A DNA stretch of 64,000 nt from a virus. Lineage: Duplodnaviria; Caudoviricetes. Below are positions 11,916 through 42,512 of this stretch, in pieces. Below the pieces are notes generated by a model that worked only from the letters and a program-made list of their open reading frames with translations, made no database searches and was not told the DNA's origin. The stretch lies in the IMG/VR virus record IMGVR_UViG_3300033074_001542, positions 6,068-70,067 of that record. One strand, given 5' to 3'. The position numbers were made by a program, and so were the translations under genes. Numbering within the stretch: position 1 is the stretch's first letter; every line of letters starts with the position of its first letter.

Positions 11916-12098
11916 TCAGGCCTCCTTCTCTTGGACCATGTCGAGCTCCGTGGTGAGCTCCTTCACGGCATCCTCGATGTCGGTCAGGTCATCCTTGTAG
12001 GCCTGCCGACGTTTCTTCTCTTCCTTGATCATCTGCTCGCGCTTCTTCAGAAGATTCACGAGACGCTGCGTCTTGTCGTCGGATTCGGGGCAGTTCAT
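11916..12098 (-). CDS. Small coiled-coil protein
   Basis: MNCPESDD start with ATGA overlap. Confidence 0.55.
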   Translation of the reverse strand: MNCPESDDKTQRLVNLLKKREQMIKEEKKRRQAYKDDLTDIEDAVKELTTELDMVQEKEA

Positions 12099-12337: not shown

Positions 12338-12353
12338 CTGGAAGGCCTCCTGG

Positions 12354-13838: not shown

Positions 13839-13858
13839 TTTCTATTCCTCCTCTGATG

Positions 13859-14248: not shown

Positions 14249-14583
14249 CGCTTCTCCCTCGCAAACAGGTGGTTGATGGCGTTCCGCATGAGCCTGTCGA
14301 GGTCCTTGCGGTTGTAGTCGAGCAGGTCCCCGTCCTCGTCGAGCTTTCCGGTCAGGATTCCATCCTTCACGAGGGCGTGTGCGATGTCGCAATTCCACCC
14401 GCTGTCACCGAGCGGCCTCTTGCCGCTGAATCCCTCTTGTTGCGACCAGAGCTCGAGCAAACATTGATGAAGGAAGTCGCCGACGCTGGAGGCGCCGGTC
14501 GCTTTCTTGTTCATCGGGGCCGCGAGGACCCTTTCTTGGGTGGCGCGCCACGCCTCGGCGAGGGCTTCGTTGTTGTCTGCCAT
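14245..14583 (-). CDS. Hypothetical protein
   Basis: First gene of the minus-strand operon; GGAGAAG RBS. Confidence 0.6.
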   Translation of the reverse strand: MADNNEALAEAWRATQERVLAAPMNKKATGASSVGDFLHQCLLELWSQQEGFSGKRPLGDSGWNCDIAHALVKDGILTGKLDEDGDLLDYNRKDLDRLMRNAINHLFAREKR

Positions 14584-14632
14584 CGTTTTCTTCTCCGAAC
14601 GCGAATTCTAGACGTTTTCGAGCCCGGCGCAA

Positions 14633-14685
14633 CCGAAATTTCGCGCCGGGACCATAAATAGTGGTCTCGGCGCCTAAAATTTCGG
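14633..14685. promoter_or_regulatory. Long imperfect inverted repeat at a divergent junction
   Basis: CCGAAATTT-c-GCGCCGGGACCA-taaatag-TGGTCTCGGCGC-cta-AAATTTCGG between the diverging starts at 14583(-) and 14690(+). Confidence 0.5.
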
Positions 14686-14689
14686 CCTG

Positions 14690-15028
14690 ATGACAAAAAA
14701 ACAGCTCTCCGAGGTCTTCGATCAGTACCCGGACGTCGAATTCGTGGTCCTGGATGGCCTGGACGAGGCGATCGTCGGCGTCGTCGACCGCAAGTTGCAG
14801 CCGCAGCCCGTCCTGCTCTACTCCGTGGCGAAAATCATCGAGATCCTGACCGGCCAGATGGCCCAGGACCTGGACCAGAGGGTCGACCTCGAGGATCCGG
14901 ACGACGATGACCCGGAGGAGCTGGCCTGGGAGTGGTTTTCCTTCAACATCGAGGACGCCTGGATGGGCGACGGGACGCCGGCCTTCCTCTGGGACGTGCC
15001 GGGGGAGCCGAAGGAGCCGCATCCCTGA
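14690..15028 (+). CDS. Conserved acidic phage hypothetical protein
   Basis: LDGLDEAIVGV..LLYSVAKII..AWEWFSFNIEDAWMGDGTPAF, a pattern common in phage proteins. Confidence 0.7.
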   Translation: MTKKQLSEVFDQYPDVEFVVLDGLDEAIVGVVDRKLQPQPVLLYSVAKIIEILTGQMAQDLDQRVDLEDPDDDDPEELAWEWFSFNIEDAWMGDGTPAFLWDVPGEPKEPHP

Positions 15029-15030
15029 CC

Positions 15031-15222
15031 AAAATGGATGATCCGGCCCGCCCTCGGCGCCTTCTCGCCGCGTGCGCGGCTCAACGACACCTGTTTTTGG
15101 CGCACGGGCCGGATCCTCGAAGAAAAATGGATGATCCGGCCGGCCCTCAGGTCCTCATCGCCTCTGCTGGCGAGTTCAACGGCTCTGTTGGCAGGGCTCA
15201 GCCGGATCCGCGGCGATTCTAG
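15031..15222 (+). repeat. Degenerate 93-bp tandem duplication with a 25-bp near-identical head
   Basis: AAAATGGATGATCCGGCCCGCCCTC at 15031 and AAAATGGATGATCCGGCCGGCCCTC at 15124. Confidence 0.7.
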
Positions 15223-16010
15223 TCCCGGTTTCTGGTCGTCTCAACCGGGAACGCGGGCCGGACGAGGGAATACAGGCCTGTTTCCGAGTCCCTCCGCACG
15301 ACACCGCCGTTCTGAAGGTCGGTGAGTGCGTCGAGTGCGGCGTCGGCGCCGATGCCGGAGGCCGCATAGAGCACCCTCGCCTTGGTGGGTCCCTCCTCGA
15401 GACGCCGGATTATCTTCTCCACGGGCGTCGAGAACTGAACTGGCTTTGGTTTCGGGGGTTCTGGGGGCGGGGGCGGCGGAACGTCTACTTTAACTGGCGG
15501 CGGCGTAACCACGGCCGACTCGGTTGTCTCGGGCCTAGCGATGCCAGCGTCCGCCATGCTCCAGAACTTCGAATTCCTGGGCCCGCGGCTCATCACGATC
15601 TCGCCTCGCCCCAGGAGCAGGTCGAGGGCCGCATTCAGGTTGGCCCGTTTCGCCCCCACGAGTTCGTGAAGCTGGTTTGTTATGACTCCTGGGTTTGACT
15701 TCAGCGCCCTCTTGACGCGCGTGATCGTGCTCTCGATCACCAGCATGAAGGCGGCGGCCCGTTCTTCATCCCGGGCGTTCCGGTATTCGATGGAGGCGGC
15801 CCTGGCCTCCGTCAGGAGGCGGGCTTTCTCGGCTATTTTCGCCTCCCTGGCCGCCTTCTTCGCGTTCACGTCATTTCTCCACACCGCCTTGGCGTCGAGC
15901 TCGGTCTTGAGGGCCGGCGCGATGAGCTCCAGGGAGGCCGCAATGCGCTCAAGCACCTCCAGGATGGCCTGGGCGCGGGCCGGTGAAGTCGTAAGATGGT
16001 CGATGTCCAT
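15219..16010 (-). CDS. Double winged-helix DNA-binding protein
   Basis: Coiled coil, wHTH1 (RALKSNPGVITNQLHELVGAKRANLNAALDLL), Pro linker, wHTH2 (IIRRLEEGPTKARVLYAASGI..ALTDLQNGGVV). Confidence 0.65.
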   Translation of the reverse strand: MDIDHLTTSPARAQAILEVLERIAASLELIAPALKTELDAKAVWRNDVNAKKAAREAKIAEKARLLTEARAASIEYRNARDEERAAAFMLVIESTITRVKRALKSNPGVITNQLHELVGAKRANLNAALDLLLGRGEIVMSRGPRNSKFWSMADAGIARPETTESAVVTPPPVKVDVPPPPPPEPPKPKPVQFSTPVEKIIRRLEEGPTKARVLYAASGIGADAALDALTDLQNGGVVRRDSETGLYSLVRPAFPVETTRNRD

Positions 16011-16834
16011 GATGATCTCCCTTTCAGATCGTCTGGCGTGCCTCCGGCGGGCAATTGCGGCCCGCCGGAGGCCTCTCGCCGCCGCGGATTTTACTGCTTC
16101 TCAGGCAAAAACGCGATAAAGGAAACGCCGGGACACGACATGGTGCGTAAAATTCGCAAAGAAATAGTACCTCTGCACTGGTTCCTCGACCCTGCGAAAA
16201 CAGGACGTTACGCGGATTCTGCATGTTTAAGCGTTTCTTTTTCGCGAAAACGACAATTCGTCCAGTGGTCGTTGTGACTCCAAAAAAACAGAAACCCGCT
16301 GGGAATCATCAGTTCCTGAGTTCCCGGCGTTTGCCCCTACGGGGGAGGAGCTTCGCTCCACTCCCGCATCGCTCCGCTCGCTCCGTTCCGCCGCTCCGTC
16401 CCCCGCTTAACGGGGTTCCGGTTCTCGGTTAATAGTGGAGAACCGGACGGGAACCGCTGACACAAGTGGATTGCAAAAAAATTCGCAATTGAGTGTTTTC
16501 AAAGGAGCTTTTACGTGTTCCAAAACGAAAAATTAAAAAATCGGGGGCGTGGGTATGATTCAAGACACCGGTTCACAGGGGGCAGTATGGGGGTGGCACC
16601 CCAGATCCATGACGCGGGGCGTAAATTTGACATAATGGACGTTATCGGACCCTGAGACGGCGTTCTGGATGGCGTTCTGGGCGGCTCCCTGGTGGTGCAT
16701 GGTCTGGTCTCCTATCCAAGTGTGCCCCTAGGGGCGTTACTCCGGCGTACTGGGTGAAATGACCCACTTGCGTCCTACTTGCGCCGCTCACTTGAAACAC
16801 TTCGTTTCACGGCGAAATGAGCTGGAAACAAGAA
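16011..16834. other. Non-coding, AT-enriched control region (candidate origin or genome terminus)
   Basis: No credible ORF; A-tracts, palindromes and short repeats. Confidence 0.5.
16040..16072. promoter_or_regulatory. Perfect 13-bp hairpin in the leader of the wHTH gene
   Basis: GCCTCCGGCGGGC-aattgcg-GCCCGCCGGAGGC. Confidence 0.45.
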
Positions 16835-16862
16835 GAGCCCCTAGGGTTTCCCCTAGGGGCTC
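16835..16862 (-). terminator. Rho-independent terminator
   Basis: 12-bp stem GAGCCCCTAGGG/CCCTAGGGGCTC with a GAAA loop on the minus strand, followed by TTCTTGTTT, downstream of the 16881-17339 gene. Confidence 0.75.
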
Positions 16863-16880
16863 GATGTAGTCACGCTGTTG

Positions 16881-17339
16881 CTACGCTTTGGGGATCCCTA
16901 CGGCAAGCAAATCGATCGACGAGACGGACGCCGTCCTGGTCGTTCCCTTCTCCCGCTCCTTCTGGGCAGAGTAGGCCTTAGCCGCGGTCAGGCACTCCTT
17001 GAGAAAGGTCTGGTTGTTGGCGGTCCTGAGGCTGGTCAGCCAGTCGCCCAGATCCTCGCTGTGGAGGATCAGGTAGGCGAGCATCTCGGGACCGAGATTG
17101 ATCGTCCCCTTGTGCTTGTTGGTCTCGAGATCGTGGACGTAGAGCGTGAGCCACCCGGAGCGGACGCCGTTCCGCTTCTCGTCAGAGCGGGTTAGCCGGA
17201 ACCTCTCCCGGATCACCGGCTTCTCCTGGGTCTTCTCCTGGGCCTCCACGATCTCGATCTCCACACCCTGCTTCTGGTAGGCGCTGATCTGGTCAGCCGT
17301 CAGGGTCGAGAACTTGTCGAAACTCATCTTCACGATCAT
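16881..17339 (-). CDS. Hypothetical protein
   Basis: AAGGAGAAG RBS, coding-like composition and its own terminator. Confidence 0.75.
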   Translation of the reverse strand: MIVKMSFDKFSTLTADQISAYQKQGVEIEIVEAQEKTQEKPVIRERFRLTRSDEKRNGVRSGWLTLYVHDLETNKHKGTINLGPEMLAYLILHSEDLGDWLTSLRTANNQTFLKECLTAAKAYSAQKEREKGTTRTASVSSIDLLAVGIPKA

Positions 17340-27755: not shown

Positions 27756-29735
27756 ATGCGTATGACGATGGTATCGACCGATCCGCCCGCGTGGGCGATC
27801 GAGTCGTCGTATGACGAAAGGAAAATCCCAAGCGAGGCCAAGGCCTGGTGGCACCCGCAGTTCAAGTGTGACCGCTTCCCGAAATGCGCAGCCTGTAATG
27901 CTGGCCTCGGAAAGACGTGGTGGACGCGGGATCTGATCGTTGCCGCAAGGCTCGCCGGATACGCGGACAAGGCGACGCGAGAAGTCATTGAGGCAATGAT
28001 CAGGAAGACCTCTGATTCGATCGAGGCGAGCCGTGCAAGTGACGCCGACATCGACGTCCCTGTACCACCGGGGCTCACCTTGCTTCCTTTTCAGAAGGCC
28101 GGCGTGGCCTATGCGAAGGACGGGACCGGGACCCTCATTGGTGACGAAATGGGACTCGGGAAAACCGTCCAGGCGATCGCCTTGACGAACATCTGGTCTG
28201 ATGTCCACCGCGTCCTGGTGATCTGTCCGGCATTCCTCAGGATCAACTGGCAGCGTGAGTTCACTCGATGGAGCACGCGTGGCCTGAAGACCGGGATCGT
28301 CGACCGCTCAATCTGGCCGAGTGTTCCGGAGTGCGATCTCAAGGTCGTGATCACCAACTACGATGTGCTATCCAGGCACGTCGATGCGCTGAAGGTAGGG
28401 TGGGATCTCGTCATCCTGGACGAGGCCCACTACGTGAAAAACCCGGACGCCCAGCGCACGAAGCTGGCTCTTGGGGTGACGGCAAGGCGCCGCCTGTATC
28501 TGACCGGGACTCCGATGCTCAATCGTCCCAGAGAGCTCTGGACGCTGGTGAACTCGCTCGCCCCCAAGGTCTTCCCGTCAAAGTACGGATTCCTTCACCG
28601 CTACTGCGGGCCCGAACAGGTGTTCGTGCCCGGGAAAGGAATGGTCACCAAGTTCGATGGTGGCTCCAACCTGGACGAGCTTTACCGCAAGCTTCGAGAG
28701 TGGATCCTCCTACGACGCACCAAGGACGATGTGCTCAAGGACCTCCCACCGAAACGCCGCACGGTGATCTGCGTCGAGACCAATGGGTCGGATGCCCTGG
28801 TTCGTGAGGAGTTCGCGGCGCTCGAGAAGGCTTGCGAGAAAGCTGGTACGGCGGTCACTGACCTCGCCTATGAGGATGCGGTCGCTGCCTTACAGCAGGC
28901 CGAGGAGATTGCCTTCCAGGAGATGTCCGAGATTCGGCATGAGGTGGCCTTGGCGAAGGTGCCGAAGGTCATCGAGTACGTGCTTGGGATGCTAGAAGGC
29001 GGGATCGAAAAGGTGGTGGTCTTCTGCCACCACAAGGATGTGGCAGCCCAGCTCTTCGTCGGGCTCGCCGATTACTCTCCGGTCGTTTGCACCGGGGACA
29101 TGACCAAGGAGAACCGGCAGTGGAGCGTCGATACGTTCCAAACAAACAAGAGCGCTCGCGTGTTCGTAGGAACGATCATGGCGGCCGGCGTAGGGCTCAC
29201 CTTAACGGCTGCGTCCAACGTGGTTTTTGCCGAGCTCGACTGGGTCCCTGGGAACATCAGCCAGGCAGAGGACCGATGCCACCGCATCGGCCAACACGAT
29301 TCCGTGAACATCTACCATCTCGTCTTCGATGGGTCCCTGGATTCCAAGATGGCGAAGATGATCATCGAGAAGCAAGAAGTGGCGGACCGAACCCTGGACA
29401 GGGGAGAGGCGCCCGTTATCACACTTCCACCCGTCGTGGAGAGTAGAGATAAAGAAGTTCTATCTCTACCGAAACAAGAGCCCGCGCTTCCAGCGGAGGT
29501 GACCGCCTCCGTCCACGAGGGACTCCGGCTTCTTGCCGGAATGTGTGACGGCGCCCGGACGAGGGATGGAATGGGGTTCAACGGGACCGATACCGTCTTC
29601 GGGAAGGAGCTTGCCAGACTCCCATCCCTTACCCCGAGGCAGGCGCTGGCTGCCAAGAGGATGCTGAAGAAGTACCATGGACAGCTCGGCCCGGCGCTCG
29701 TGATGGCAATCTGGCCGGACTGGGAGGAACGATGA
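27756..29735 (+). CDS. SNF2-family (HARP/SMARCAL1-like) helicase
   Basis: LIGDEMGLGKT, LDEAH, LTGTPMLNRPRELW, VVFCHHK, GVGLTLTAAS, QAEDRCHRIGQ. Confidence 0.93.
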   Translation: MRMTMVSTDPPAWAIESSYDERKIPSEAKAWWHPQFKCDRFPKCAACNAGLGKTWWTRDLIVAARLAGYADKATREVIEAMIRKTSDSIEASRASDADIDVPVPPGLTLLPFQKAGVAYAKDGTGTLIGDEMGLGKTVQAIALTNIWSDVHRVLVICPAFLRINWQREFTRWSTRGLKTGIVDRSIWPSVPECDLKVVITNYDVLSRHVDALKVGWDLVILDEAHYVKNPDAQRTKLALGVTARRRLYLTGTPMLNRPRELWTLVNSLAPKVFPSKYGFLHRYCGPEQVFVPGKGMVTKFDGGSNLDELYRKLREWILLRRTKDDVLKDLPPKRRTVICVETNGSDALVREEFAALEKACEKAGTAVTDLAYEDAVAALQQAEEIAFQEMSEIRHEVALAKVPKVIEYVLGMLEGGIEKVVVFCHHKDVAAQLFVGLADYSPVVCTGDMTKENRQWSVDTFQTNKSARVFVGTIMAAGVGLTLTAASNVVFAELDWVPGNISQAEDRCHRIGQHDSVNIYHLVFDGSLDSKMAKMIIEKQEVADRTLDRGEAPVITLPPVVESRDKEVLSLPKQEPALPAEVTASVHEGLRLLAGMCDGARTRDGMGFNGTDTVFGKELARLPSLTPRQALAAKRMLKKYHGQLGPALVMAIWPDWEER

Positions 29736-30418: not shown

Positions 30419-33400
30419 CTACTGGTACCTATCCATGGGGTCCGTCTTGTAGGCCACCACCGCTTGCCTGCGGAGCTCGTTGACGGCCCTGATGATCTCC
30501 TTGGCGTACTTGATCTTCTCGCTGTTCGACAGGGTGTTGTCCTTCAGGATCTCCATTCGGCGGCGCTGCAAGACGACGATGTCGTCGTTGATAGACTTCA
30601 TCACGTCGCTCCAGATCAGCGCCTTCTTGTTTGCCGGCCTGGCGAGGTATCTGTTGCCGGCATCTGAGTCGCCCTTGGCGACATAGGCATCGATCGTCTG
30701 CTTCGCCGTCCTTGTCTTGCCGTAGATGTCGCGGTACAGGATCGTCTCGTACCCAAAGGAGGAAGGCTCAGGAGGCATGAACCGTCCGAAGAGTTGCGAG
30801 TACTCTGATGGTGGCATCGGCTTTCCGACCTTCGTACTTACGTACTCGTCCGCGGCCGTCCGTGTTGACTTTGCCAGGGATCCCATCTTGTCGATGATGT
30901 ATGCGGTCTGGTCAGAGCTCGGTACGAACCCCTCCAGGTCTATCGCTCCGTTGGTAGCGTCCGACAAATTCTGCGCCGTCCTCCACATCGTGGAGGAGAT
31001 CGCCTTGCTGAGCTCCCCGGTATGTGGGCTCTGTCGATCCGGCGGCTCCAGGTCCTTCTGGCTCTCGAGCTCTATGGGCGTTCCGAAGAACAGGTCCTTC
31101 TTCGCTATGAGGCCGGCAGCCAGGTCCACGAGGGGAGGAGACGAGAAGGAGAGCAACTGCGACCCGATGCTTTTGCCGACCCGTGACGCGATCTCTGTTC
31201 CCGTTTCAAGGCCGGGCCGCTCCGGGTCCAGCTGGCGCTTCGCGCCATACAGGTTCCGCACCGCGTTGATCATGGGCGCCAATGATTTCGGGTTGCGTCG
31301 ATAGGCCTCATCCAGTGCTGCCTCGGCGCCGGTCATAAAGATCTGGCCGTAGACGAACCCCTTGGGGATTGCAACGATCTTTCCCCTGTACTCTTCGGGC
31401 ATCCCATCAACATCAGGGAGCCTGGTCCACATGTACAGGGACCCACCAGGCGTCTTGCGCTTGCGTTCGATCTCCTCGTCGTCCTTCGTCATCACCCAGT
31501 TGATGGCGGCCGGAACCGACAGCATCAAGACTCCGCGGGCCATCGTCGAGATCGGGTGGTTCTTGAGTGTCTGGTAGAACTTGTCCGCCGAGGCTATCCC
31601 GGCGTGCATGAACGGGCTGATGACCCCGAGAGATTTCAGTACCTCCGAGGATCCGTGGCGCGAAAAGTTGACGGTCACCTCGCGGGCCGCACGGCCCGCC
31701 TCGAGGTCGCTCAGGCCGCGGTCCTTCGCCAGGTTGAACTCGGCCCTTCTCGTCGCAGACTCGAACGGTTCCACGATTGCGTCCGCGAGCTGGAGCGGGT
31801 GGAAGATGCGGAGGACGCCCTTCATCAGTTTCGAGGTGCCATCCGTTTCGCGCATCATGTTCTCGTACTCTTGGCGGGCGATGCGCGTCGGCTCCCCGGT
31901 CAGGTTGGCAAACGAGCCGGCGGTCATCTTGTAGGCCAGACTCCTCTTTGCGTTGTCCTCTCCGCGGCGCACCCCCATCGAGGCTGCAACGGTCCTCAGG
32001 AGCTGGTAGTAGGGCGTGAACGGCATCTTCATGGCGCCGGTGACGCCGCCCAGCGCCTCCGATTGGATCGCCCGCGTCTGAACGTCGCGCCCTTGGTTCG
32101 CGATCGGGAAGAGCCAGTGGTGGGTTGTGAGCCACTTCAACGGGCGGGCCAGGGACAGGATCGACGCCCACCTCGCCACCTGTCCGCCGATATGCCGCGA
32201 CCCCACCGCCTCGTCCAGGAACTTGGCGATTCCTTCGTCGATCCTGAACTTGTTGTACTGGCCACCGTCCCAGTAGCCGAAGCTCAGGCTTCGCTTGTGG
32301 AAGTCCCGATCCTTCACGGCTTTCTTGTCTTCGCTTTCGGCCTTGATGATGTCCTTCAGGGTGGCATCCAGCTGTGCGATGGCATCGTCAGAGAGGCCAG
32401 TCTTGTCTTTGGACAGCTCGAATGCCGCCTTGAGCTTCACCCCGGTAGCCGAGAGGGGTGATCCTGATGATCCGCGGGAACGACGGACGGCGTTTCTCCA
32501 GTACACGGGGTTCGTGTCCACCGCCTTCCCGAGGGTGCGGTAGAGCCGGTTCCGTTCCGAGAGCGTGATCATCCGATGGGCGTACTCGATGGCCGCAAGC
32601 GTGTGATCCAGGGTCTCCCGCTCCGACCCCTGGAGTCTCTTTCCGATAGAGGAGACGCTCCTGGTGGATGCGCCGCCGGGCGAATAGATCTGGTCGAACA
32701 CGCGCTGCATGCTCGTGTAGTTCGGATACTTCAAGCGCAGGGTAGTCGCGAGCTCTTGCGGGATGGCCCCCGAGTTGACAACGTAATCAAGGACCGCCCC
32801 GTACCAAGCATCGAACTTCCTGGACAGTTTCAGGATCTTCTCGTTCGGCGGTTTCCCGCCGGTCCCCTCGATCTCATCTACGATCCGGGCCGCCTTCTTG
32901 AGATCCTTCCCCGTCTCGATGTACTCACCCGATGCGTTCTTCTCTTGCGAGACAGCGAGGGCATGCTTGCTCTCCCGGTACAGGGCGACCTTCAGGTAAT
33001 CAGGGCCGGCCTCCTTCATCAGCGCCTGGAACGGCTCAACATCATTCCTGAAGTCGAAGTCCCCGTCCCCTTTGATTCCACGCACAGGACCGTGCCACTT
33101 GCCGTTACTGTCTTGCTCACCGTAGAGGAAGCCAGACATGATCTTTCCAGAGAGACCGGCCATCTCGTCCGCCATCAAAGACGGGGACTCGAGGACGTGA
33201 AGGCGCTTCTGGCCATTGGCGTCCGTGTACTCGACCTTGTCCTCGAAGTGGCCCGAGGCCTCTTCCATAGATCGCACCGAGGCGGTGTAGTCGAGTAGCG
33301 CCGCCCTCATCGTCGCCGGCAGCTTGGCCGCGACGTGCTTCGGGATCCCTACGCCCTGTTGCAGTCGGTCGAGGGCTTCTTTGAGTTCTGGTCCGAGTGG

Positions 33401-36400
33401 GTCTCCGGCCTGCCTGCCTGAGTACTGATTCTTTTTCGTTCCCGGGAGGCCTTGATCTCCTCCAAGAATTTCTTCTCCAGATCCAGGTCCGACTCCCCGC
33501 CCATCTCCAGCTCCCTGTAGATTTGACCCCAGTTTTCCGGCATCTTCGACCCCTTTCTCCGGGATGAAATCAATCCCGGCGTCTGCGAGGGCATCATCAC
33601 CCTCCGGATCCTTTTTGTAAAGTTCTCGCACCCTGTCCATTTCGAGCATATGAAGTGCGAAAGACTCCGGGGTGTAGGCGTTCTTCTTCCGGATGATGTC
33701 GTCCAGGCCTTTCTTGATCTGGTCGAGCGTGAGCTGGGTCCCGCCTCTCGAGTCGCCGATCTGGTATTCGACATGGCCGACAAGCTTCTCCGGGTTTTCG
33801 TTCCACTTCCGGAAGAGCTTCATCGTCATCTGGTCTGGCGTGAAGAGATCGACGTTACGTTTCCCCTCCTCCGAGAAGACCTCATTGGCCGGCGTCCGGC
33901 GAACACCGTGCTCGGCCAGGGCGGCGTGGACACGGCGCTGGATCGAACCGGGCTCTGTCTTTGCCAGCATGGAGGCGACGACCTCGTCCTTGCTTTTGAC
34001 TGGGACAGGAGCTTCGGGGTCGAACTTGGTGTTCCAGGCGCCGAGAAGTTTCCCGTGATCCATGTAATAGATGAGTGACGGTTTCCCGTCCCCGCCGGGC
34101 ACGATCAGGAGTCCGGTGTTCGTCGACTTCGGGTCGGTCTGCTCCCAGAAGTTTCCGACGCTGTCAAGCTTCTCTCTGGGGATGACATCCCCGGCCGCTA
34201 TCCCGAGCTTGGCCGCTTCCTGCTTCGCTCGCTTGATGACGCCTTCGTATCCGATCCCTGCCGGCTGAAACATCAGGGCGCGGTCTTCGTACCCCATGTC
34301 CCGTACCAGGTGCCCGAGGGCCGTCCTGGCGGTATACCTCTGGCGCAAACGGACGATGCTGTCGTACCTGTCCTTCGCCATCTTGGTTGCCACGTCACGG
34401 TCAACATCCGCGATGAGGTTGAACAGCCTCTCGGCTTCCCCTCTCGGGTTCCATTTGTCAGTCTCTGCCTGCGGACGAGGTGTGATCTTCGGCAGGTTGC
34501 CGGGCCCCTCGTCAAACTTCTTGGGTAGAACGTACGGCTCCGCCGGCGTCTTCAGGGTGACGACGGATGGTTTTCCGGTCGTCACGATTCCGCTCTCCGT
34601 GATCGAAACGAGCCCCTTCCTGGTCAGCTCATTGAGTCCTTCACGGAGGATGGGAAGCTCCTTCGGTCCCTCGTAGATCGCATCCCGGAAAGCCTTCGGC
34701 AGCTCGGCCACACCGTTGTCGGTGAGAACGAGCGAGTGGACCTTTCTGCCCTTGTACTCGAACCCGGCGCCATCCCAGTCCTGCCCAGGCGGAACGTAGG
34801 TCGGAGAGAGGAGACCGCGCTCGATGAGGTCGACCACGTTCCCCTTCGGGAGCGAGGCCGCAACCTTCGACGGGATCGTCGCGTCCGTGATGTCGAACCC
34901 CTCGTCGGCAACCCTGCCGGCGCCACCATGAGCTTTGATCACTTCGTTTGCGATCCTCTGTAGGGTCACGTCGGCGGTCCTGGTGATCGGGATCTCGTCA
35001 CTCCCAGGGATACGGACGCTCACAACATCACGCACAAGGAGATCTCGCTTCTGGGCCCGGCGCTCGGCTACCGCACGGGCGATACGGGATGCGGCCCTGT
35101 GACCAGCCTCGGTCAGCCTCGCGTCTGCCAGACTTTTTACCCATACCGGAATCGATGTCTTTGGTGCGTGTTCTTTTACGTCGGAGACTTCTTTCCCGTA
35201 GGCCCTCACGTCAGCGACGGTATCGAGCTTGCGCCAGACCGTCTTCCCCTCGGCGCCCACCTCCACCATGATGCGACCCTTGTCCTTACCCAGGGCCAAA
35301 AGTCCCTCCTCACGCATCCGTCTGATCACCCAGCCGATCCTGTCTGCTTTCAGGCCTGGAATTTCGCTCAGCCATTCAGTCACAGTTTCGAGTGGGACCC
35401 GGTCGGGCATCGAAGGCTTGTCCAGCTCTGCCGCGGCCTTCGGGAACATCCGGACGATCTTGGTTGCGATATCGGAATCCACCTCACCTTCGATGCCCCG
35501 TTTCAACGAAGCTCTTGATCGTTCCGCGTCGGATTTTCCGAGGGACGCCCCGAGCTTGGATACCGCGGAGGAGTACATCCTCCGGATGGCGTGCTCGCTG
35601 CTCCCGAGGTCCCTCACTAGTTCCGCCATCGGCAGGGCGGCGTCGGGGGATTCCAGTAGCTTTTCGCCTACCTTCCTGGCGATGTATCGCTCCTCTTTGG
35701 TGAGCGCCTCGAACGCTTTGTCCTGCGTCTCCTCGAGACTGCGCCGGATGATCTCCTCATCAGCTGGCTTGACCCTGGCGTCGGCGACGAGTTCCCCGTA
35801 CGAGGTATCGTCCTCGCCTTCCCTGCCACGCCGCGCCGTGGCGTCGAGAGAGATCTCGCTGGACTGAAGCTCCTGACGCTTCAGGTGATTCTTGATGACC
35901 GCTTCGGTTATTCCCTCGTTACCTTTTTCTCGGAGAGACTCAACGACCTCCTGCGTCGTTGGTTCGCGATCGAGATCATTACGGAGAGCGTCGTACTCCT
36001 TGTCGATGATCTGCCCGATCCTGACGGCATTCTTTCCGGCGAGTCCACCGCCACGAGACAGGTAGATCGCATCGGTCATGGCTTGCTGGGCGGCAACGTT
36101 GACCGTCCGACCCAGGGATTCGATACCCTTCACGCCGGCCTCACGCTGCTTGATGTACTTGTCGACGACTCTCAGGGCCGCATCGTTACCAGCATCAACC
36201 AGGTCCTCGAACCTGACGCCGGTGCCGCGGCGCATCCTGGTTGCCGTGCCAGCGACGGTGAACAGGGACCGCCCGAGCAGGTCCTCGTAGGTAGCCTTGG
36301 CTTCCTCCGCTGGGCTCAGGTCTTTCGGGACACCGCGCTCCGTCAGCTCTCCTTCGAATGCAGATCTCAGGGTGTTGTAGTAGTCCTTGATCCTGACCCG

Positions 36401-39400
36401 TTCCTCCGCGTCCTCATAAGAGGATTTTGGCTTGCTCTGCCTGGTCTTCTTTTCTGGCAACGGGACGATCTGCTCTGGCGAGAATGGTTCGAAGGGGTGC
36501 TCGTAATCGACTTCACCTTTTTCGCCGAGCGAAACGTTCCCCTTCCTGATTTCACTCTCTCTCTGTAGCGGAGCAATCCGCTGCGCCCTGATACCAGAGA
36601 TGATCTTTGCCCACTTCTGCGGGATCGTCCGGATAGGGACAGGACTCTCCCCACCAAGCGGAGCCTCCCCGAAACGCATACCGCCCAGTTGATTGGCGTA
36701 TCTTGTGCCGGAGAGTCTCTCGAGTTCGTCTGAACTGGGTGACCTGGTCGCTGCGCCAAAACGTGTTGAGCGCCCGCTCGTGAGGTATGTCTGTACCCAC
36801 TTCCTGGCTGTTTCTTCCGGGATCTTCTCCACGTTCGATACAACCCGGACGAGGTCGTCGATAGAGATCTCTGGCTGGATCTCCGCCGGTTTCGAGCGTC
36901 CGGTCTCGTCGACTGTTACTTTTCGCGCGCCCGTCTCGGATATCCCCTCTTCGCGGTACTTCAGGATCTGGGCTGCGTAGTGGTCTACGACCCTGATGAT
37001 TTCGCTCTCCCGCTCTATCTCATCGATATTCCTGGCCTCACGCCCGGAGAACCTGATTCCGGTGCTCGCCTTTCCGAACTTGCCGGATTCGGCCAGCTTA
37101 TTCAGCTTGTCGCGTCTCTCGTCGAGCACTCTGAGGTTGCCGCCGTCGGCTGGCTTACTGACGCTCTCGTCAGCCACGACCACTTTTCTGGCCTTCGCCA
37201 GAAGATCCCTGAGCCTCTCAACATGCCTTGGGTTGATCTTGTCCGGCGAGCCCATACCAGACACATCGAGTATCTTTTCGTAGAGCTCGTCGAATTCCCC
37301 GATGGCTTCCTGGAGCTCTTTCTCGGTTGGCCGGGTGGACTCGGTCTTGGCCTCGACCGGTTCCTGCGGAGCCTCTGTACCCCGTTTCATCTCGGAGATA
37401 GAGAGGTCCGATACGGCTTCCATAGGCGCTTCTTTTGCGGGCTCTTTCGGAGCTGTCTTAGGAGGTTCCTGAATCGGACGTTCGACGCGCGGAACTTCCC
37501 ATCTGTCCGCCATGACGTGGATCTTCTCGATGCGCTGCCTGGCGATCTCGGCAGCAAGCTTCGAGCCCTCGTCAGCGGGGTTGGCAGAGGCCTCTTTTTC
37601 AGCGACGTCAAGAAGCCTGTAGTGGGACCGGTACGCCTCGTTGACCATCTCTCTCTTGACGGCCTTGGCGGGTCCCTTTCCACTCTTGTTCCATGTTTCG
37701 CTCAGCGTCTTCGCCGCCTTGTCGGCGACGGCCTTGGCGGTACCCACGTCGAGGCTTTCCGGCTCCGGAATTGCCGGCGCCTTCGCTTCTACTGTATTGG
37801 GTGCCGGCTCGGCGGGCGGCGCAGCGGTCTTCGCTTCTTTTGGCGGCTTTTGCTTGGGCGGCTTCGGAACCTCGGCCGGCTTCGGCGGTTCTGATTTCGG
37901 GGGTTCGACCGGGGGCTGGGCTTCAACCGGCGGGGCCTGGGCCGGCGGCGGAGCCGGAGCCGATGCGGCTGCTTTTCTCTTCGCCTCAAAAGCCTGGGCC
38001 TGCTTCAGGGCGCTGGCCACTTGTTCCGGGGCCAGGTTGAGCTCGTTGATGAAGCTCTCCTCCATGGCCTTGTAGTCGAGCTCGCCATCCCTGCCCCGGA
38101 AGCTGTCCAGGTCGCTGGCCTCGATCTCGACATCCGCGTCAACCTCGGCCGGCTCAGCCGCAGGTTTTGCGGCCGGCTTAGGGGCTGACTTGGGGGCGGG
38201 TGCCGTTTCTTGCGGCTTGGGCGCCGGCGGTGCCGTCGGCTTCTTGGGATAGAGAAGGTCGGCGAGTGGATCCGCTTTCAAGCGATCGATCTTCTGCTGG
38301 ATGCGGGCGACGGCGACATCCTTTTCGTTCTTCCCCATCGCCGGGTCAGCCTTCGCTTTCGTCAGCTCTTCCTGAAGCTTGGCGACCGCATCCGTCGTGC
38401 TTTTCTTCGACGCCGTGTGCATCAGCTTCGCGGCATCCAGGGCCCGCTGTTCGGCAGCCATCTTTTCATCGAGCGCCTTGGCGAGGTTCGGTTTCTCGGC
38501 TGCCTCGAGAGGCGCTTGATCGAATGCTTCCTTCGCTTTGGCTACCTCTTCTCGCGCCGCCTGGACATTCCGGAGGGCAATCTGCGCGACGCCGGTCCGC
38601 TCGGCTTCGACGTCAGCCTTCTGGGCTACGTCGTACCGGCCGAGTCTGATGTCCCTCATCGTGGCGTCGGCTTTCTGCTTGTCAGTCAGGCTGCTTTCGC
38701 CGGTGAGCACGCGCCGCACCGTTGCCTGCTGCTGGCGACGCCGGGCCTGGTCGTACTTCTCCGGTGTCTCCATCTGGCGCAGGGCGATGTACATCTGGGA
38801 CGCCATCGGATCGCCCTTGAAGGCTGACGTATCACCGGCCTCGTAGGCCGCGAACATCTTGTCGAACTCTGCCGGGTTCTTGTCGTAGAGGCGCTTGTAA
38901 TAACCGTAGTTCGGGTGAAGGCCTTCGCCGCGCTCGATGTTTTCCTGGATACGTTCGGTCGCTCCGAGAGCCTCGTTGAGCTGACGAACCGCTTCCGCAT
39001 GGATGCTCTTCTCGGGGCCGTCCGGCAGTCCTGCCATCTTCGACTCAAGGTCCGCGCGAACAGCCTGGATCGTGTCGGCGTCCGCGAGGGCGCCAGACTT
39101 CAGACCGAGTCCCTTTTCGAGATCACCGAGCTTTCCCTTGAGCCGGCCGGACTCGACTAGCCAGTGCAGTTTTTCGTGCTGAAAGATGCCCGGTGTCGTC
39201 TCGCCACGCAGTGCGTAGATGGTGTTCTCGGCATCGTTGAACCAGGCGATCGGCTCTTTCGCTCCGCCTCCACCGCGGATGGCGTCACCGCCCTCGGTAG
39301 CCTGCTTGTATTCCGGGCTGTCCTTGTCCATGAACTTCACGGAAAGAGACTGAGGCGTATCGCTCGACGTCCACTTACCGTCTTCGCCGCGCTTCCAGTT

Positions 39401-41008
39401 GAGTGCCGAGGTCTCAAGCAGAGCCCTCTGGCCGTCGATGGTTCTCGTGTCAAACTTCCCGCCCGGAACATCAACATCGAACGGGGTTCGGTTATGGAAG
39501 GCCGAGCGAGCCATCCCGCCCATGAACGCCGCAGTTGCGCCGGTCCCGATACCCTCACGGACCGCCTTCTCCCAGTCTCCTGTCTGGGGCGCAGACGCCA
39601 GGGCCTCCACCGCTTCCGGCCCTTGATTCCAGAGCTCGCGCGCCATTCCCTGCGCGAAGTAGGGCGTCACCACGGCCTTATGGAGACCGGCCTCTGTCGC
39701 GCCAGTGAGGACCGAACGCGCACCTTGCGCTAACTCCCGACCGAGGCCCGTGAGTCCGTCCTTGTAGGGGGCCGCCGACTTAAATGCGTTCTTTGCCGCC
39801 TCCAGTGACGGCTGGTATGTAGTCGACTCGCGCCAGAGATCCTTCGCAACGGCAGGAATTTCCCTGGGAATCAAGCTCCGAACTCCGGTCGCCTGCTGAC
39901 TTTCCAGGATGGCTTTTCCGGTTTCCTGAAACACCTTTGCCTCGCGCGCCCCGGTGAATGCCGGGATCAGTTCGCGGGCGGCCTGGATGGCGCCACCGAC
40001 CTTGCCAAGCGAAGTGGCTTCTGGTGGAGCCGCCTTGATCATCCGGCCCAGGGCGTTCAGGCCCTTCGGGGCTACGTTCGCGATCTTGTTGATAGCGGCC
40101 ATCTCGCCGCCAAGGAGCATCTCGCCCAGGCCCCCGGCCACCTCACCCCCGACCTCGGCCAACCGGCCGGCCTTGACGAGTCCGGGTGTTCTGTCGATCG
40201 CCTGCTGCGCCTCGAGCTGTGTTTCGCCGAACCGCGGGTCCGTTTCGCCGACCTGGCGTTTCACGTCGTCGACATCGTCGTTGGGCCCGAGACGGAGTTT
40301 CCGCCTGAGCTCATTCTGCCTCTTGACACTCTCGGCACGCGCCCAGGCAGCGTCCGCCGCATGTGATTCCGCTCCCAGCTGGAGGGCGAGCCCTGGAATT
40401 CGCCCCATCTGTCCGAGCTGCGGAGTCACCGCTTGAAGCGGGGCCATCACGGTAGCCCATGCTTTCGATCCAGCGCCCGCGTTTGGATCGGTATAGGTGT
40501 CGACGAGCGGTTCCACCGCGCGTCCTGAAAACGTTTTCTCGAGAGCTCTTTCTGGAACAGGGAGGCCGCGAACCCTGCCGAGAGATCTGGATGCCGGTTG
40601 CATGTCTTCCGGGGCCGGGATAGCGTTTGCGTCTTCCGGCTGGAACTCTGTTTGGTTGCGCCTAGATGCCTCCATCTTGGATGCGAACGGATCCGCATCC
40701 GACACGAACCGACGCCGGCGCTTGTCGGCTAGCCATGCGATGTCTTCACCCTGGCGCGGCCCGACAAACTCGGGATCTAGGCCACGCTCACGCAGGGTCT
40801 GGACAGCACCCACGGGAGCCCTGTGCGAGAGCGGAGCCATCAGGCCCTCGCCGCTTTTCGACCGCCTGTAGAACTCCTTCACGGAGTCCGAGGTCTTGGC
40901 CATCTCGCGGGGAACGAAGAACTTCTCTGGTCCGCCCTCTTCCGTCATGTCGACGTAGATACCGGGGAGTCTGTCGTCCAGGCCACCTATCCAGTCGTAA
41001 TCAGCCAT
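30419..41008 (-). CDS. Giant (~3,529 aa) polyvalent DNA-ejection/internal virion protein: zincin-like HExxH motif, Pro/Ala linker, embedded sigma-70-like domain, C-terminal LPD38-like domain
   Basis: Start refined to MADYDW at 41008 (AAGGGG RBS). GIFQHEKLH at ~39170; sigma-like segment at ~35540-36325; ESATRRAEF..AAREVTVNFSRHG..PFMHAGI..IPKGF (LPD38-like, ~31050-31780). It is the last gene of the virion operon. Confidence 0.8.
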   Translation of the reverse strand: MADYDWIGGLDDRLPGIYVDMTEEGGPEKFFVPREMAKTSDSVKEFYRRSKSGEGLMAPLSHRAPVGAVQTLRERGLDPEFVGPRQGEDIAWLADKRRRRFVSDADPFASKMEASRRNQTEFQPEDANAIPAPEDMQPASRSLGRVRGLPVPERALEKTFSGRAVEPLVDTYTDPNAGAGSKAWATVMAPLQAVTPQLGQMGRIPGLALQLGAESHAADAAWARAESVKRQNELRRKLRLGPNDDVDDVKRQVGETDPRFGETQLEAQQAIDRTPGLVKAGRLAEVGGEVAGGLGEMLLGGEMAAINKIANVAPKGLNALGRMIKAAPPEATSLGKVGGAIQAARELIPAFTGAREAKVFQETGKAILESQQATGVRSLIPREIPAVAKDLWRESTTYQPSLEAAKNAFKSAAPYKDGLTGLGRELAQGARSVLTGATEAGLHKAVVTPYFAQGMARELWNQGPEAVEALASAPQTGDWEKAVREGIGTGATAAFMGGMARSAFHNRTPFDVDVPGGKFDTRTIDGQRALLETSALNWKRGEDGKWTSSDTPQSLSVKFMDKDSPEYKQATEGGDAIRGGGGAKEPIAWFNDAENTIYALRGETTPGIFQHEKLHWLVESGRLKGKLGDLEKGLGLKSGALADADTIQAVRADLESKMAGLPDGPEKSIHAEAVRQLNEALGATERIQENIERGEGLHPNYGYYKRLYDKNPAEFDKMFAAYEAGDTSAFKGDPMASQMYIALRQMETPEKYDQARRRQQQATVRRVLTGESSLTDKQKADATMRDIRLGRYDVAQKADVEAERTGVAQIALRNVQAAREEVAKAKEAFDQAPLEAAEKPNLAKALDEKMAAEQRALDAAKLMHTASKKSTTDAVAKLQEELTKAKADPAMGKNEKDVAVARIQQKIDRLKADPLADLLYPKKPTAPPAPKPQETAPAPKSAPKPAAKPAAEPAEVDADVEIEASDLDSFRGRDGELDYKAMEESFINELNLAPEQVASALKQAQAFEAKRKAAASAPAPPPAQAPPVEAQPPVEPPKSEPPKPAEVPKPPKQKPPKEAKTAAPPAEPAPNTVEAKAPAIPEPESLDVGTAKAVADKAAKTLSETWNKSGKGPAKAVKREMVNEAYRSHYRLLDVAEKEASANPADEGSKLAAEIARQRIEKIHVMADRWEVPRVERPIQEPPKTAPKEPAKEAPMEAVSDLSISEMKRGTEAPQEPVEAKTESTRPTEKELQEAIGEFDELYEKILDVSGMGSPDKINPRHVERLRDLLAKARKVVVADESVSKPADGGNLRVLDERRDKLNKLAESGKFGKASTGIRFSGREARNIDEIERESEIIRVVDHYAAQILKYREEGISETGARKVTVDETGRSKPAEIQPEISIDDLVRVVSNVEKIPEETARKWVQTYLTSGRSTRFGAATRSPSSDELERLSGTRYANQLGGMRFGEAPLGGESPVPIRTIPQKWAKIISGIRAQRIAPLQRESEIRKGNVSLGEKGEVDYEHPFEPFSPEQIVPLPEKKTRQSKPKSSYEDAEERVRIKDYYNTLRSAFEGELTERGVPKDLSPAEEAKATYEDLLGRSLFTVAGTATRMRRGTGVRFEDLVDAGNDAALRVVDKYIKQREAGVKGIESLGRTVNVAAQQAMTDAIYLSRGGGLAGKNAVRIGQIIDKEYDALRNDLDREPTTQEVVESLREKGNEGITEAVIKNHLKRQELQSSEISLDATARRGREGEDDTSYGELVADARVKPADEEIIRRSLEETQDKAFEALTKEERYIARKVGEKLLESPDAALPMAELVRDLGSSEHAIRRMYSSAVSKLGASLGKSDAERSRASLKRGIEGEVDSDIATKIVRMFPKAAAELDKPSMPDRVPLETVTEWLSEIPGLKADRIGWVIRRMREEGLLALGKDKGRIMVEVGAEGKTVWRKLDTVADVRAYGKEVSDVKEHAPKTSIPVWVKSLADARLTEAGHRAASRIARAVAERRAQKRDLLVRDVVSVRIPGSDEIPITRTADVTLQRIANEVIKAHGGAGRVADEGFDITDATIPSKVAASLPKGNVVDLIERGLLSPTYVPPGQDWDGAGFEYKGRKVHSLVLTDNGVAELPKAFRDAIYEGPKELPILREGLNELTRKGLVSITESGIVTTGKPSVVTLKTPAEPYVLPKKFDEGPGNLPKITPRPQAETDKWNPRGEAERLFNLIADVDRDVATKMAKDRYDSIVRLRQRYTARTALGHLVRDMGYEDRALMFQPAGIGYEGVIKRAKQEAAKLGIAAGDVIPREKLDSVGNFWEQTDPKSTNTGLLIVPGGDGKPSLIYYMDHGKLLGAWNTKFDPEAPVPVKSKDEVVASMLAKTEPGSIQRRVHAALAEHGVRRTPANEVFSEEGKRNVDLFTPDQMTMKLFRKWNENPEKLVGHVEYQIGDSRGGTQLTLDQIKKGLDDIIRKKNAYTPESFALHMLEMDRVRELYKKDPEGDDALADAGIDFIPEKGVEDAGKLGSNLQGAGDGRGVGPGSGEEILGGDQGLPGTKKNQYSGRQAGDPLGPELKEALDRLQQGVGIPKHVAAKLPATMRAALLDYTASVRSMEEASGHFEDKVEYTDANGQKRLHVLESPSLMADEMAGLSGKIMSGFLYGEQDSNGKWHGPVRGIKGDGDFDFRNDVEPFQALMKEAGPDYLKVALYRESKHALAVSQEKNASGEYIETGKDLKKAARIVDEIEGTGGKPPNEKILKLSRKFDAWYGAVLDYVVNSGAIPQELATTLRLKYPNYTSMQRVFDQIYSPGGASTRSVSSIGKRLQGSERETLDHTLAAIEYAHRMITLSERNRLYRTLGKAVDTNPVYWRNAVRRSRGSSGSPLSATGVKLKAAFELSKDKTGLSDDAIAQLDATLKDIIKAESEDKKAVKDRDFHKRSLSFGYWDGGQYNKFRIDEGIAKFLDEAVGSRHIGGQVARWASILSLARPLKWLTTHHWLFPIANQGRDVQTRAIQSEALGGVTGAMKMPFTPYYQLLRTVAASMGVRRGEDNAKRSLAYKMTAGSFANLTGEPTRIARQEYENMMRETDGTSKLMKGVLRIFHPLQLADAIVEPFESATRRAEFNLAKDRGLSDLEAGRAAREVTVNFSRHGSSEVLKSLGVISPFMHAGIASADKFYQTLKNHPISTMARGVLMLSVPAAINWVMTKDDEEIERKRKTPGGSLYMWTRLPDVDGMPEEYRGKIVAIPKGFVYGQIFMTGAEAALDEAYRRNPKSLAPMINAVRNLYGAKRQLDPERPGLETGTEIASRVGKSIGSQLLSFSSPPLVDLAAGLIAKKDLFFGTPIELESQKDLEPPDRQSPHTGELSKAISSTMWRTAQNLSDATNGAIDLEGFVPSSDQTAYIIDKMGSLAKSTRTAADEYVSTKVGKPMPPSEYSQLFGRFMPPEPSSFGYETILYRDIYGKTRTAKQTIDAYVAKGDSDAGNRYLARPANKKALIWSDVMKSINDDIVVLQRRRMEILKDNTLSNSEKIKYAKEIIRAVNELRRQAVVAYKTDPMDRYQ

Positions 41009-41018
41009 CCGGGTCCCC

Positions 41019-42512
41019 TTATTTTCGTTTGCCGTTGAGGCCGTAAACCGGGATACCGCTTCCACCGCCACCGCCGGGGGCAGCTGCCGATGGATGAGAT
41101 GCCGTCGGACCAACATCTACCTGCGGCAGGGTCAGATATTCCTCGCTCAAGCGGCCGCTCCGGAACAACGGTAGAGCCATGTTCCTGATCAACTCGATGG
41201 CGCTGTCTTTCGTCATCTTTCCATCCTCGGTGAGGATCGTGATGGCGTCGGCATACGTCTTCGGGTTACGCGCCTTCAGCTTCTCGGCGGCGAACCTGTC
41301 TATGAGACTGCCACCCGTCGTGCGTGGCACGACTCCGCTCACGAGCGAACCAACAACGCGGTTCTCGATCATGCCGGCCCGTCTAACGTTCCGATCTTCC
41401 AGCGCCGACTCCGCCACTTGCGCCTCGAGCGGCACACCTTCAATGGGAACCGTGCGACCTGACCTCGTGAGCCCGTACCAGACACCGTCTTTTGATGTGT
41501 AAGACTTGATGTCGTCATCGCCCTTATTGATTCCGGCTTTTCTGGCGTTGATGTCCATCTGCTCTTTCCAGACATCGAATTCGATCATCCCGTCGGGTGC
41601 CGAATCACCCGGTCTCACTTTGGTAGTCTGGTACGTTTTTGGGTTGATGTAAGTGATGGCGTTCCGCGGGTTGTTCCTGTCGGCCTCTTGCTGCAACGCA
41701 AACTGCTTGTTCAGCCTTGCGTCTGTAGCCTCTTCCTGCGCCTTGAACCTGCGATTCAGAAGCTCTTCCTGGTAGTCAGCCTTCTCGCGGTCGGTCATCT
41801 CTGGCGAGAAGACGCTCCAGTACGCAGCGTCGTACTTGTTCTGCGCCGCTCGCATCTTTCGTTCTTTCAGATCGTTCCTCATGTTGAGGACCGCCCCAAA
41901 CTGCGGGAACATCGCTGACAGAATCATGGCCCAGGTGCTACCGGACGAGTCTGTCGCTTCCTGCCATTCCTTCTCGGCCTTCTCAAGGTCGGACTGGGAG
42001 CCGCGCACGAGGTCGCCACCCTGTAGCTTCGGGGCTGCTGTCTTCGTGCTGACGTCGATACCCTTCAACAGGTTTTCGTTGAACGATGTCGACCCCATGG
42101 CGTCCGGAGACTTGGTGGATTCCGGGCCGGCGAACTCGGCTGCACGCTTGAACGGCGTGGCGAACGCGCCGGCGTCATTTATCGCGAACGACTTTTCTTC
42201 TGGCTCAAACGGACTGAGCCCAGGGGGTTCAGGGGAGCTCATCCGAGCCGACATGATCTCCGGGGAGATTCCCTGGCGAGCTTGCTGCGCGGCCGCGTTG
42301 AACGGAGTCGCGAAGGCGTTGTTGACGTCGTGTTCCTGCGTCACCTCGGTGCCTGCGGTCGGATCGAACGCGGCGAGCTGATCAGCGGAAAGCCTCGGGG
42401 CTACAGCATTAGGCATACTGGTTCGCGACCTGAGCGCCGAGTACCCAGACGACCGCTGGGGCGCCGCGTTAAAGCTCACCTGGCTGCTGAATGGTTTTGC
42501 TCCGTATGCCAT
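41019..42512 (-). CDS. Internal virion / DNA-ejection protein
   Basis: Position before the giant protein, a hydrophobic helix (WAMILSAMFPQFGAVL) and a coiled coil. Confidence 0.6.
   Translation of the reverse strand: MAYGAKPFSSQVSFNAAPQRSSGYSALRSRTSMPNAVAPRLSADQLAAFDPTAGTEVTQEHDVNNAFATPFNAAAQQARQGISPEIMSARMSSPEPPGLSPFEPEEKSFAINDAGAFATPFKRAAEFAGPESTKSPDAMGSTSFNENLLKGIDVSTKTAAPKLQGGDLVRGSQSDLEKAEKEWQEATDSSGSTWAMILSAMFPQFGAVLNMRNDLKERKMRAAQNKYDAAYWSVFSPEMTDREKADYQEELLNRRFKAQEEATDARLNKQFALQQEADRNNPRNAITYINPKTYQTTKVRPGDSAPDGMIEFDVWKEQMDINARKAGINKGDDDIKSYTSKDGVWYGLTRSGRTVPIEGVPLEAQVAESALEDRNVRRAGMIENRVVGSLVSGVVPRTTGGSLIDRFAAEKLKARNPKTYADAITILTEDGKMTKDSAIELIRNMALPLFRSGRLSEEYLTLPQVDVGPTASHPSAAAPGGGGGSGIPVYGLNGKRK

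Follow-up and report, generated by a model that had tools for sequence, protein, structure and literature searches.

Within a 64,000-nucleotide stretch of DNA, hereafter called the window, a giant minus-strand gene encodes a protein of 3,529 amino acid residues that almost certainly contains a genuine, diverged module of the sigma-70 family. The window covers bases 6068-70067 of a 70,067-bp IMG/VR viral genome (IMGVR_UViG_3300033074_001542) of an uncultured short-tailed phage. As judged from sequence comparisons, the module is complete, with regions 1.2, 2, 3, 3.2 and 4 colinear and normally spaced, and the protein that harbours it is a polyvalent protein of the type that carries the LPD38 domain.

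Identification of the sigma-70-like module

The open reading frame of the giant gene (30419..41116, minus strand) encodes 3,565 aa if counted from the first in-frame ATG at 41116. This numbering is used throughout, and subtraction of 36 converts it into that of the 3,529-aa form. The ATG at 41008 is almost certainly the true start, because it lies 10 nt past the stop of the upstream gene (41019), is preceded by an AAGGGG box and is the start adopted in the public protein set. A preliminary description of the window had placed a complete sigma-70-like factor at 35540-36325. On the minus strand this segment, which corresponds to residues 1598-1859, translates into 262 residues without a stop codon, in frame with the giant open reading frame, and all the strings quoted in that description were found in the translation.

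Several profile and sequence searches related this segment to sigma factors over nearly its whole length. The NCBIfam model TIGR02393 (RpoD_Cterm) aligned segment residues 27-258 with positions 16-224 of its 238-position profile with an expectation value (E) of 1.7e-9 and a score of 37.7 bits, far under the equivalog cut-off of 354, and weaker matches were obtained with the FliA/WhiG and SigB models. A phmmer search of the PDB chains matched segment residues 5-258 to residues 176-408 of Thermus SigA (E 4.9e-5), colinearly from region 1.2 to region 4.2, and returned other SigA proteins as well. The same program, run against 1.84 billion representative proteins, retrieved the giant protein itself and six stand-alone proteins of 285-424 aa (E 8e-7 to 4.6e-4, 26-31% identity), all six of which possess the Pfam Sigma70 r2, r3 and r4 domains. 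In addition, the segment was cut into three pieces, each compared by hhalign with the profile of these six nearest sigmas. Each piece alone matched the correct part of the profile, in the proper order, with E of 2e-5 for sigma2, 5e-11 for sigma3 plus region 3.2 (hhalign probability 97%) and 2.7e-5 for sigma4. The TIGR02393, PDB and stand-alone sigma matches, together with the separate matches of the sub-domains, bear out the claim of a complete sigma-70-like factor inside the giant frame. Its extent has to be revised, since the alignments place the beginning of the homology about 30 residues upstream of the start first given, near window position 36400-36420; the in-frame sigma module stands as described, and a region-1.2-like helix is added outside the segment. 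The Pfam profiles proposed as a check performed poorly: neither Sigma70_r2 nor Sigma70_r4 matched the segment, and Sigma70_r3 gave an E of 0.027 at 15 bits, below its cut-off of 25.3. Word-based protein searches for relatives, both near-length and whole-length, returned the giant protein alone, and the sigma segment matched nothing among cultured phages by tblastn.

The giant protein was found in identical form on independently assembled contigs from four runs of a single 2025 study, two of these contigs measuring 69.6 kb each at 25-35x depth. An identical 10.6-kb open frame in independent assemblies means that the long frame is no assembly artefact. Among the contigs from these four runs no sequence variants of the module were detected, all being identical to the window.

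Predicted fold of the module

The AlphaFold2 model of residues 1560-1900 consists of helical domains, for which the predicted local distance difference test (pLDDT) values are listed by domain in Table 1, connected by a region 3.2 linker that is predicted to be a flexible or disordered loop (pLDDT <50). The top 50 PDB matches of this model in Foldseek are all sigma factors (probability 1.0, E from 1.5e-6), so that the check for a sigma-like fold came out in favour of the preliminary description. VIA-align mapped model residues 11-129 onto sigma70 residues 96-451 and yielded a Z score of ~10 for the model and of 9.7 for sigma2 alone (rmsd, root-mean-square deviation, 2.9 Å over 92 residues), values near 10 not being decisive for helical proteins. 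The low overall TM (template modelling) scores are attributable, in the model, to the free arrangement of its domains.

Conserved and lost functional residues

Equivalent residues (D403, Q406, E407, G408, N409, Y425-W434 and R584-R588) are given here in the numbering of Escherichia coli sigma70. Region 2.2 of the module reads FEDLVDAGNDAALRVVDKY, compared with F.DLIQEGN.GL..A..KF in the family, and its core-binding motif FEDLVDAGNDAAL (FEDLVDAGN; DLIQEGN.GL in the family) keeps the equivalents of D403, G408 and N409. The region 3.2 finger, SLDATARRGREGEDDTSYGELVAD (SLDA...YGELVAD), corresponds to SLDAP..G......GDFI.D in the family, while region 4.2 displays a clear helix-turn-helix in which the equivalent of R588 is kept and those of R584 and E585 are changed.

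In E. coli sigma70, the region 2.3 aromatics that capture the flipped bases of the -10 element are Y425, F427, Y430, W433 and W434. The stretch of the module between regions 2.2 and 3.0 (EAGVKGIESLGRTVNVAAQQAMTDAI) contains zero aromatic residues and a small insertion (2-4 residues), compared with three to six aromatics, including the equivalents of Y430, W433 and W434, in the same 2.3-2.4 segment of the six nearest sigmas. The W433/W434 equivalents of the module are R and T, and the hhalign alignment of the sigma2 piece ends after region 2.2. The remark in the preliminary description that the -10 recognition residues look divergent was therefore well founded, region 2.3 having no aromatic residue at all. 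In these alignments the parts that contact the core polymerase are the best preserved, whereas the -10-opening part can no longer be recognised. A region 2.3 without aromatics, beside a preserved 2.2 motif, 3.2 finger and region 4 helix-turn-helix, leads us to favour an injected module that binds RNA polymerase rather than a sigma that melts promoters in the classical manner, and classical promoter opening by the module is, on this residue pattern, unlikely.

The LPD38-bearing carrier protein

The Pfam domain LPD38 (PF18857) was identified in the giant protein at residues 3245-3434 (window 30815-31384) with 34.6 bits, above the cut-off of 27. According to Iyer et al. (2017, PMC5512222), this domain is restricted to phage-type polyvalent proteins, for which these authors proposed delivery with the DNA, cutting by zincin-like peptidases and, among other roles, a jump-start of transcription. 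The gene follows the virion genes of the minus-strand operon, its neighbours there encoding an SU10-like portal, a capsid-like protein, a virion structural protein and a tail spike of the pectate-lyase type. The conserved C-terminal module matches, in part, the C-terminal regions of the large polyvalent protein of Planktothrix phage Pag-Yong1, which also bears LPD38, as well as those of 'DarB-like' giants of Vibrio phages and unannotated proteins of Bacillus phages. The earlier assignment to an LPD38-type carrier thus holds, both by the above-threshold domain match and by the gene position, and the carrier is, by its sequence, a phage-type polyvalent protein at the end of a virion operon.

Two LPD38 proteins have been detected in virions: JC1 gp69 (LPD38 at 4195-4401), by mass spectrometry of CsCl-purified particles (PMC9144972), and phi24B gp47 (2,811 aa), which is abundant in virions (bioRxiv 10.64898/2026.04.10.717836). 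From the gene position and these proteomic precedents we infer, by analogy, that the carrier is probably packaged in the virion and ejected. It also contains an HExxH motif, HEKLH here and HEQTH in the sister phage described below, invariant inside a block that is 32% identical between both phages. No peptidase profile and no PDB entry matched this block, which may, from its sequence, be a candidate processing metallopeptidase of the polyvalent protein. Between the HExxH block and the cargo lie about 350 residues (window 37577-38626, minus strand) of coiled coil and of a low-complexity linker rich in Pro, Ala, Lys and Glu, with up to 39% P+A per 100 residues, and a similar linker is present in the sister phage.

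The sequences flanking the module are less informative. Pre-sigma residues 1130-1597 had no PDB match. The single-sequence AlphaFold2 model of post-sigma residues 1860-2260 had a mean pLDDT of 48, and Foldseek returned nothing for it at E <=0.001, the best rows being winged helices of TFIIE, ArsR, MarR and ORC/ORC2 (E 0.12 or worse, none significant). A phmmer search of the PDB yielded nothing significant for this region, the helix-turn-helix proteins Vfr and YgaV standing at E 1.7-1.8, and no homologues were found. The model gives a hint, of low confidence, that the post-sigma units are winged-helix-like.

Sister phage and exchange of cargo

The one related phage found, here called the sister phage, IMGVR_UViG_3300012956_000003 (69,034 bp, complete, same G+C content), shares 76% identity in the capsid protein, 70% in the terminase and 66% in the portal. 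Its giant protein, of 3,306 aa, is syntenic (7306-17226 of its locus, minus strand), and BLASTP revealed just three blocks shared with the giant protein of the window, namely the N-terminal HExxH block, a 300-residue domain (45% identity) and the C-terminal LPD38 module of about 1,000 residues. Approximately 1,080 residues (~1180-2259), sigma module included, have no counterpart in the sister giant, and no sigma-like segment occurs anywhere in the sister genome. The sister giant carries, in addition to LPD38, an ADP-ribosyltransferase domain (ART-PolyVal, PF18760) at residues 2054-2256. Since the sister giant lacks the sigma module and has ART-PolyVal, the module looks like an exchangeable accessory cargo, and the cargo has been swapped within one phage lineage. 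The related packaged ADP-ribosyltransferase Alt of phage T4 modifies the host RNA polymerase (PMC5512222), and the swap is, by analogy, consistent with both cargos being aimed at that enzyme.

Queried with the C-terminal part, the neighbouring 497-aa protein, the domain at residues 2260-2555 or the capsid protein, IMG/VR yielded the sister phage and short similar fragments alone. A metagenome scan for relatives recovered the source contig of the sister phage again, and the portal matched nothing among cultured phages by tblastn. Direct terminal repeats are attributed to the sister phage, yet the ends of its retrieved sequence are not identical over 50-600 bp.

Organisation of the giant gene and its genome

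The coordinates of the module, of its sub-domains and of the other parts of the giant gene are collected in Table 1.

Table 1. Features of the giant gene in window coordinates, with residues in the 3,565-aa numbering.
Feature	Window position	Strand	Residues	Remarks
Giant gene	30419..41008 (stop included)	-		3,529 aa, 10.6 kb; ATG 41008; last gene of the minus-strand virion operon
Region-1.2-like helix	36344..36421	-	1566-1591	MAFFT match to the D-x-I-x-x-Y-L motif of the six sigmas; VIA mapping
Sigma2-like domain	36056..36313	-	1602-1687	Regions 2.1-2.2 well kept (GTGVRFEDLVDAGNDAALRVVDKY), 2.3-2.4 diverged; pLDDT 70-83
Sigma3-like domain	35861..36031	-	1696-1752	Includes LRNDLDREPTTQEVVESL; hhalign; Pfam r3 E 0.027; pLDDT 86-91
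Region-3.2-like acidic linker ('finger')	35765..35860	-	1753-1784	SLDATARRGREGEDDTSYGELVAD; aligns to SLDAP...GD..D of the six sigmas
Sigma4-like domain with helix-turn-helix	35543..35764	-	1785-1858	hhalign E 2.7e-5; pLDDT 82-89
Orphan stretch after the sigma module	34337..35539	-	~400 residues (1860-2260)	Three helix-helix-strand-strand units
Lineage-specific cargo segment	34340..37579	-	~1180-2259	No counterpart in the sister giant; holds the sigma module
Block with HExxH	38627..39223	-	632-830	Conserved with the sister phage; HEKLH at 39164-39178
Conserved domain of unknown function	33452..34339	-	2260-2555	45% identical to sister giant residues 1186-1487
Conserved C-terminal module	30455..33397	-	2574-3554	Common to the sister phage and, in part, to podophage large polyvalent proteins; contains LPD38

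The 70,067-bp record is rated complete by CheckV; no terminal repeat was detected in it, and independent assemblies of the same phage among the Logan contigs measure 69,603 bp (a 464-bp difference). For replication the phage has an ordinary gene set comprising a primase-helicase, an exonuclease, RecT and an SNF2 helicase. The giant gene converges with that of the SNF2-family helicase (window 27756-29735, plus strand; PHROG 62, E 1e-105), a protein with 50% identity to its sister-phage counterpart.

Transcriptional context

No stand-alone sigma factor was detected elsewhere in the phage by Pfam r2 and r4 scans. The T7-like RNA polymerase model PF00940 matched nothing, its control being equally silent. 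No PHROGs family matches the giant protein. A polymerase hidden within the giant protein was considered and rejected: the candidate was a DGDFD (DxDxD) motif at window 33055-33069 (minus strand, residues ~2684-2688), which is not conserved in the sister phage (TGKFE) and is accompanied by no PHROG match. The motif resembles the catalytic loop of two-barrel RNA polymerases, a resemblance that is probably meaningless.

Sigma-70-type promoters show no excess in the early region, with four found and 3.9 expected, and a k-mer survey of intergenic regions disclosed a convincing shared promoter motif in neither phage. The sequence GTTGTACT, the loop of a hairpin element noted in the preliminary description, is present in five copies compared with 1.2 expected, at window positions 26099 and 27701 (intergenic) and 23277, 32252 and 49550 (inside genes), that is, mostly within genes.

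Possible roles of the module

The interpretation that we tentatively prefer, although it falls somewhat short of being probable, is that the ejected module docks on the host core polymerase without classical promoter melting and acts there as a competitor of the host sigma or as a tether. According to this scenario, a polyvalent protein would have acquired a sigma-70 module as one of its exchangeable cargo domains. The giant protein would be synthesised late, its gene being the last of the virion operon. Like other LPD38 giants, it would then enter the capsid and leave it together with the DNA, perhaps once its own HExxH domain has cut it. After entry into the next host cell, the module would most likely dock on the host core RNA polymerase via region 2.2, the 3.2 finger and sigma4, and would then serve as an RNA polymerase handle, either competing with the host sigma or tethering the polymerase to the entering genome. 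DNA specificity, if any, would come from the altered helix-turn-helix of sigma4 and perhaps from the adjacent winged-helix-like units.

Several observations weigh against this interpretation or against the homology that it presupposes. The module is known from one phage genome without variants, and no homologue of it was found in the other giant proteins searched. Across the entire phage genome, Pfam Sigma70_r2 and Sigma70_r4 gave no match, even with the limit relaxed to E 10. The structural agreement is qualified, beyond the indecisive Z scores, by an AlphaFold2 input alignment that consisted of sigma factors alone and biased the model towards the sigma fold. Within region 2.2, two residues that matter for the contact of E. 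coli sigma70 with beta-prime, Q406 and E407, have D and A, respectively, as their equivalents in the module. Finally, the proteomic precedents for packaging are distant relatives that share just the LPD38 region with the giant protein.

The preliminary description had envisaged a packaged sigma that redirects the host polymerase to phage early promoters or else works as a decoy. The redirection part is weakened by the loss of the region 2.3 aromatics and by a sister phage without the module, while a decoy or handle fits the data better. A true injected sigma, which would form a holoenzyme with the host core polymerase and start phage early promoters before phage gene expression, is accordingly regarded as unlikely. 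It would agree with the full set of sigma regions, 3.2 finger and sigma4 helix-turn-helix included, with the lack of another sigma in Pfam r2 and r4 scans and of a detectable T7-like polymerase (bearing in mind the silent control of that search), and with early sigma-70-type promoters at their expected number. Moreover, the gene lies in a late operon, so that a role in early transcription would require virion delivery, and unusual -10 reading is possible in ECF (extracytoplasmic function) sigmas and T4 gp55. These points have to be set against a region 2.3 devoid of the aromatics for flipped bases, with R and T in place of W433/W434 and an insertion, against the absence of a shared candidate promoter motif in the k-mer survey, and against the sister phage, which, with the same modules for structure and replication, gets by without a sigma-like domain. 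As the sister phage lacks the module, the early programme of this phage group can proceed in its absence, and the module does not look like an obligatory starter of early transcription. The wider proposition that a capsid-packed sigma joins the host core polymerase before phage expression, and there directs the first transcription or couples the polymerase to the DNA end for pulling in the genome, is likewise considered improbable.

It is also rather unlikely that the sigma fold has been exapted without any link to RNA polymerase, as a DNA-binding or structural part of the ejection protein that, for example, holds the genome end. The loss of the melting residues, the failure of the Pfam r2 and r4 models, an identity of just 26-31% to the nearest sigmas and the flanking orphan sequence with its winged-helix-like units would all suit such a role, but the best-kept parts of the module, namely the motif of region 2.2 and the finger of region 3.2 (SLDA...GD..D), are those that matter on the core polymerase alone. 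A module that is not delivered and acts late in the producing cell, as a late sigma or in host shut-off, either within the giant protein or released by HExxH and with its packaging merely incidental, is very unlikely. The late operon that encodes the module, the conserved HExxH that could free it and the usual service of stand-alone phage sigmas in middle or late transcription (phiEco32 gp36; PMC4281155) speak for this possibility. However, a late sigma placed at the far end of the operon that it must activate would be circular, LPD38 giants occur in virions, and the sister phage is without the module. Lastly, a chance resemblance or an assembly or frame artefact, for which the missing gathering-level Pfam sigma match could be cited, is extremely improbable and effectively refuted by an E of 8e-7 among 1.84 billion proteins, by three sub-domains that match separately and in order, and by the identical 10.6-kb frame in independent assemblies.

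Relation to known systems and significance

The described cargos of polyvalent proteins comprise methylase/helicase (DarB-like), ADP-ribosyltransferase, RelA/SpoT, RNases, peptidoglycan hydrolases and an N4-type polymerase (PMC5512222). The word 'sigma' is absent from the main text of that 2017 survey, and our searches of the literature brought up no polyvalent or virion protein described as containing a sigma module. As far as these searches show, what is new here is a sigma cargo type in a known class of polyvalent proteins. The LPD38 proteins of this class, such as Burkholderia JC1 gp69, Bcep22 gp75 ('DarB-like'), phi24B gp47 and that of Planktothrix Pag-Yong1, are likewise giant multi-domain proteins in the virion module of short-tailed phages, with LPD38 near the C-terminus, HExxH, low-complexity linkers and a cargo that varies between relatives. 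They differ in the kind of cargo.

Among virion-borne transcription proteins, the N4 gp50 RNA polymerase is similar in its giant size (3,500 aa) and in its podovirus genome of ~70 kb. It enters with the DNA, as do the virion polymerases of crAss-like and phiKZ-type phages, and controls transcription before any phage protein is made, a delivery that for the present module would follow by analogy. Those proteins hold a complete catalytic polymerase, whereas in the giant protein described here no polymerase domain was found; it has a putative specificity or core-binding subunit alone, which would depend on the host core enzyme. T4 Alt and ART-PolyVal are, too, effectors injected with the DNA against the host transcription machinery, as the sigma module may be, but they act enzymatically through ADP-ribosylation, while the module would act by stoichiometric binding. 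The stand-alone phage sigmas (phiEco32 gp36 and SU10 gp32, both ECF-like; SPO1 gp28; T4 gp55; the RpoD-like proteins of jumbo phages) belong to the same sigma-70 family and redirect the host core polymerase. They are separate genes of ~200-400 aa expressed after infection, in contrast to a module embedded in 3,529 aa, encoded in a late operon and lacking aromatics in region 2.3. In a limited sample, the open frames around the best 80 IMG/VR sigma loci did not exceed 817 aa. SU10 virion proteomics was considered as a precedent for packaging and set aside, as it lists one peptide of the stand-alone sigma among many non-structural proteins and gives no evidence of packaging.

The known routes by which phages take over transcription at the moment of entry are the injection of a complete RNA polymerase, as in N4, crAss-like and phiKZ-like phages, or of a polymerase-modifying enzyme, as with T4 Alt. 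If the preferred reading is true, the phage described here would represent a third and cheaper route, in which just a subunit with a grip on the host core enzyme is injected, and the ADP-ribosyltransferase in the same giant protein of the sister phage would provide a natural control. The module would also offer a test case for what a sigma fold without DNA-melting residues can do, be it as a competitor, as a tether or in a new mode of promoter opening.

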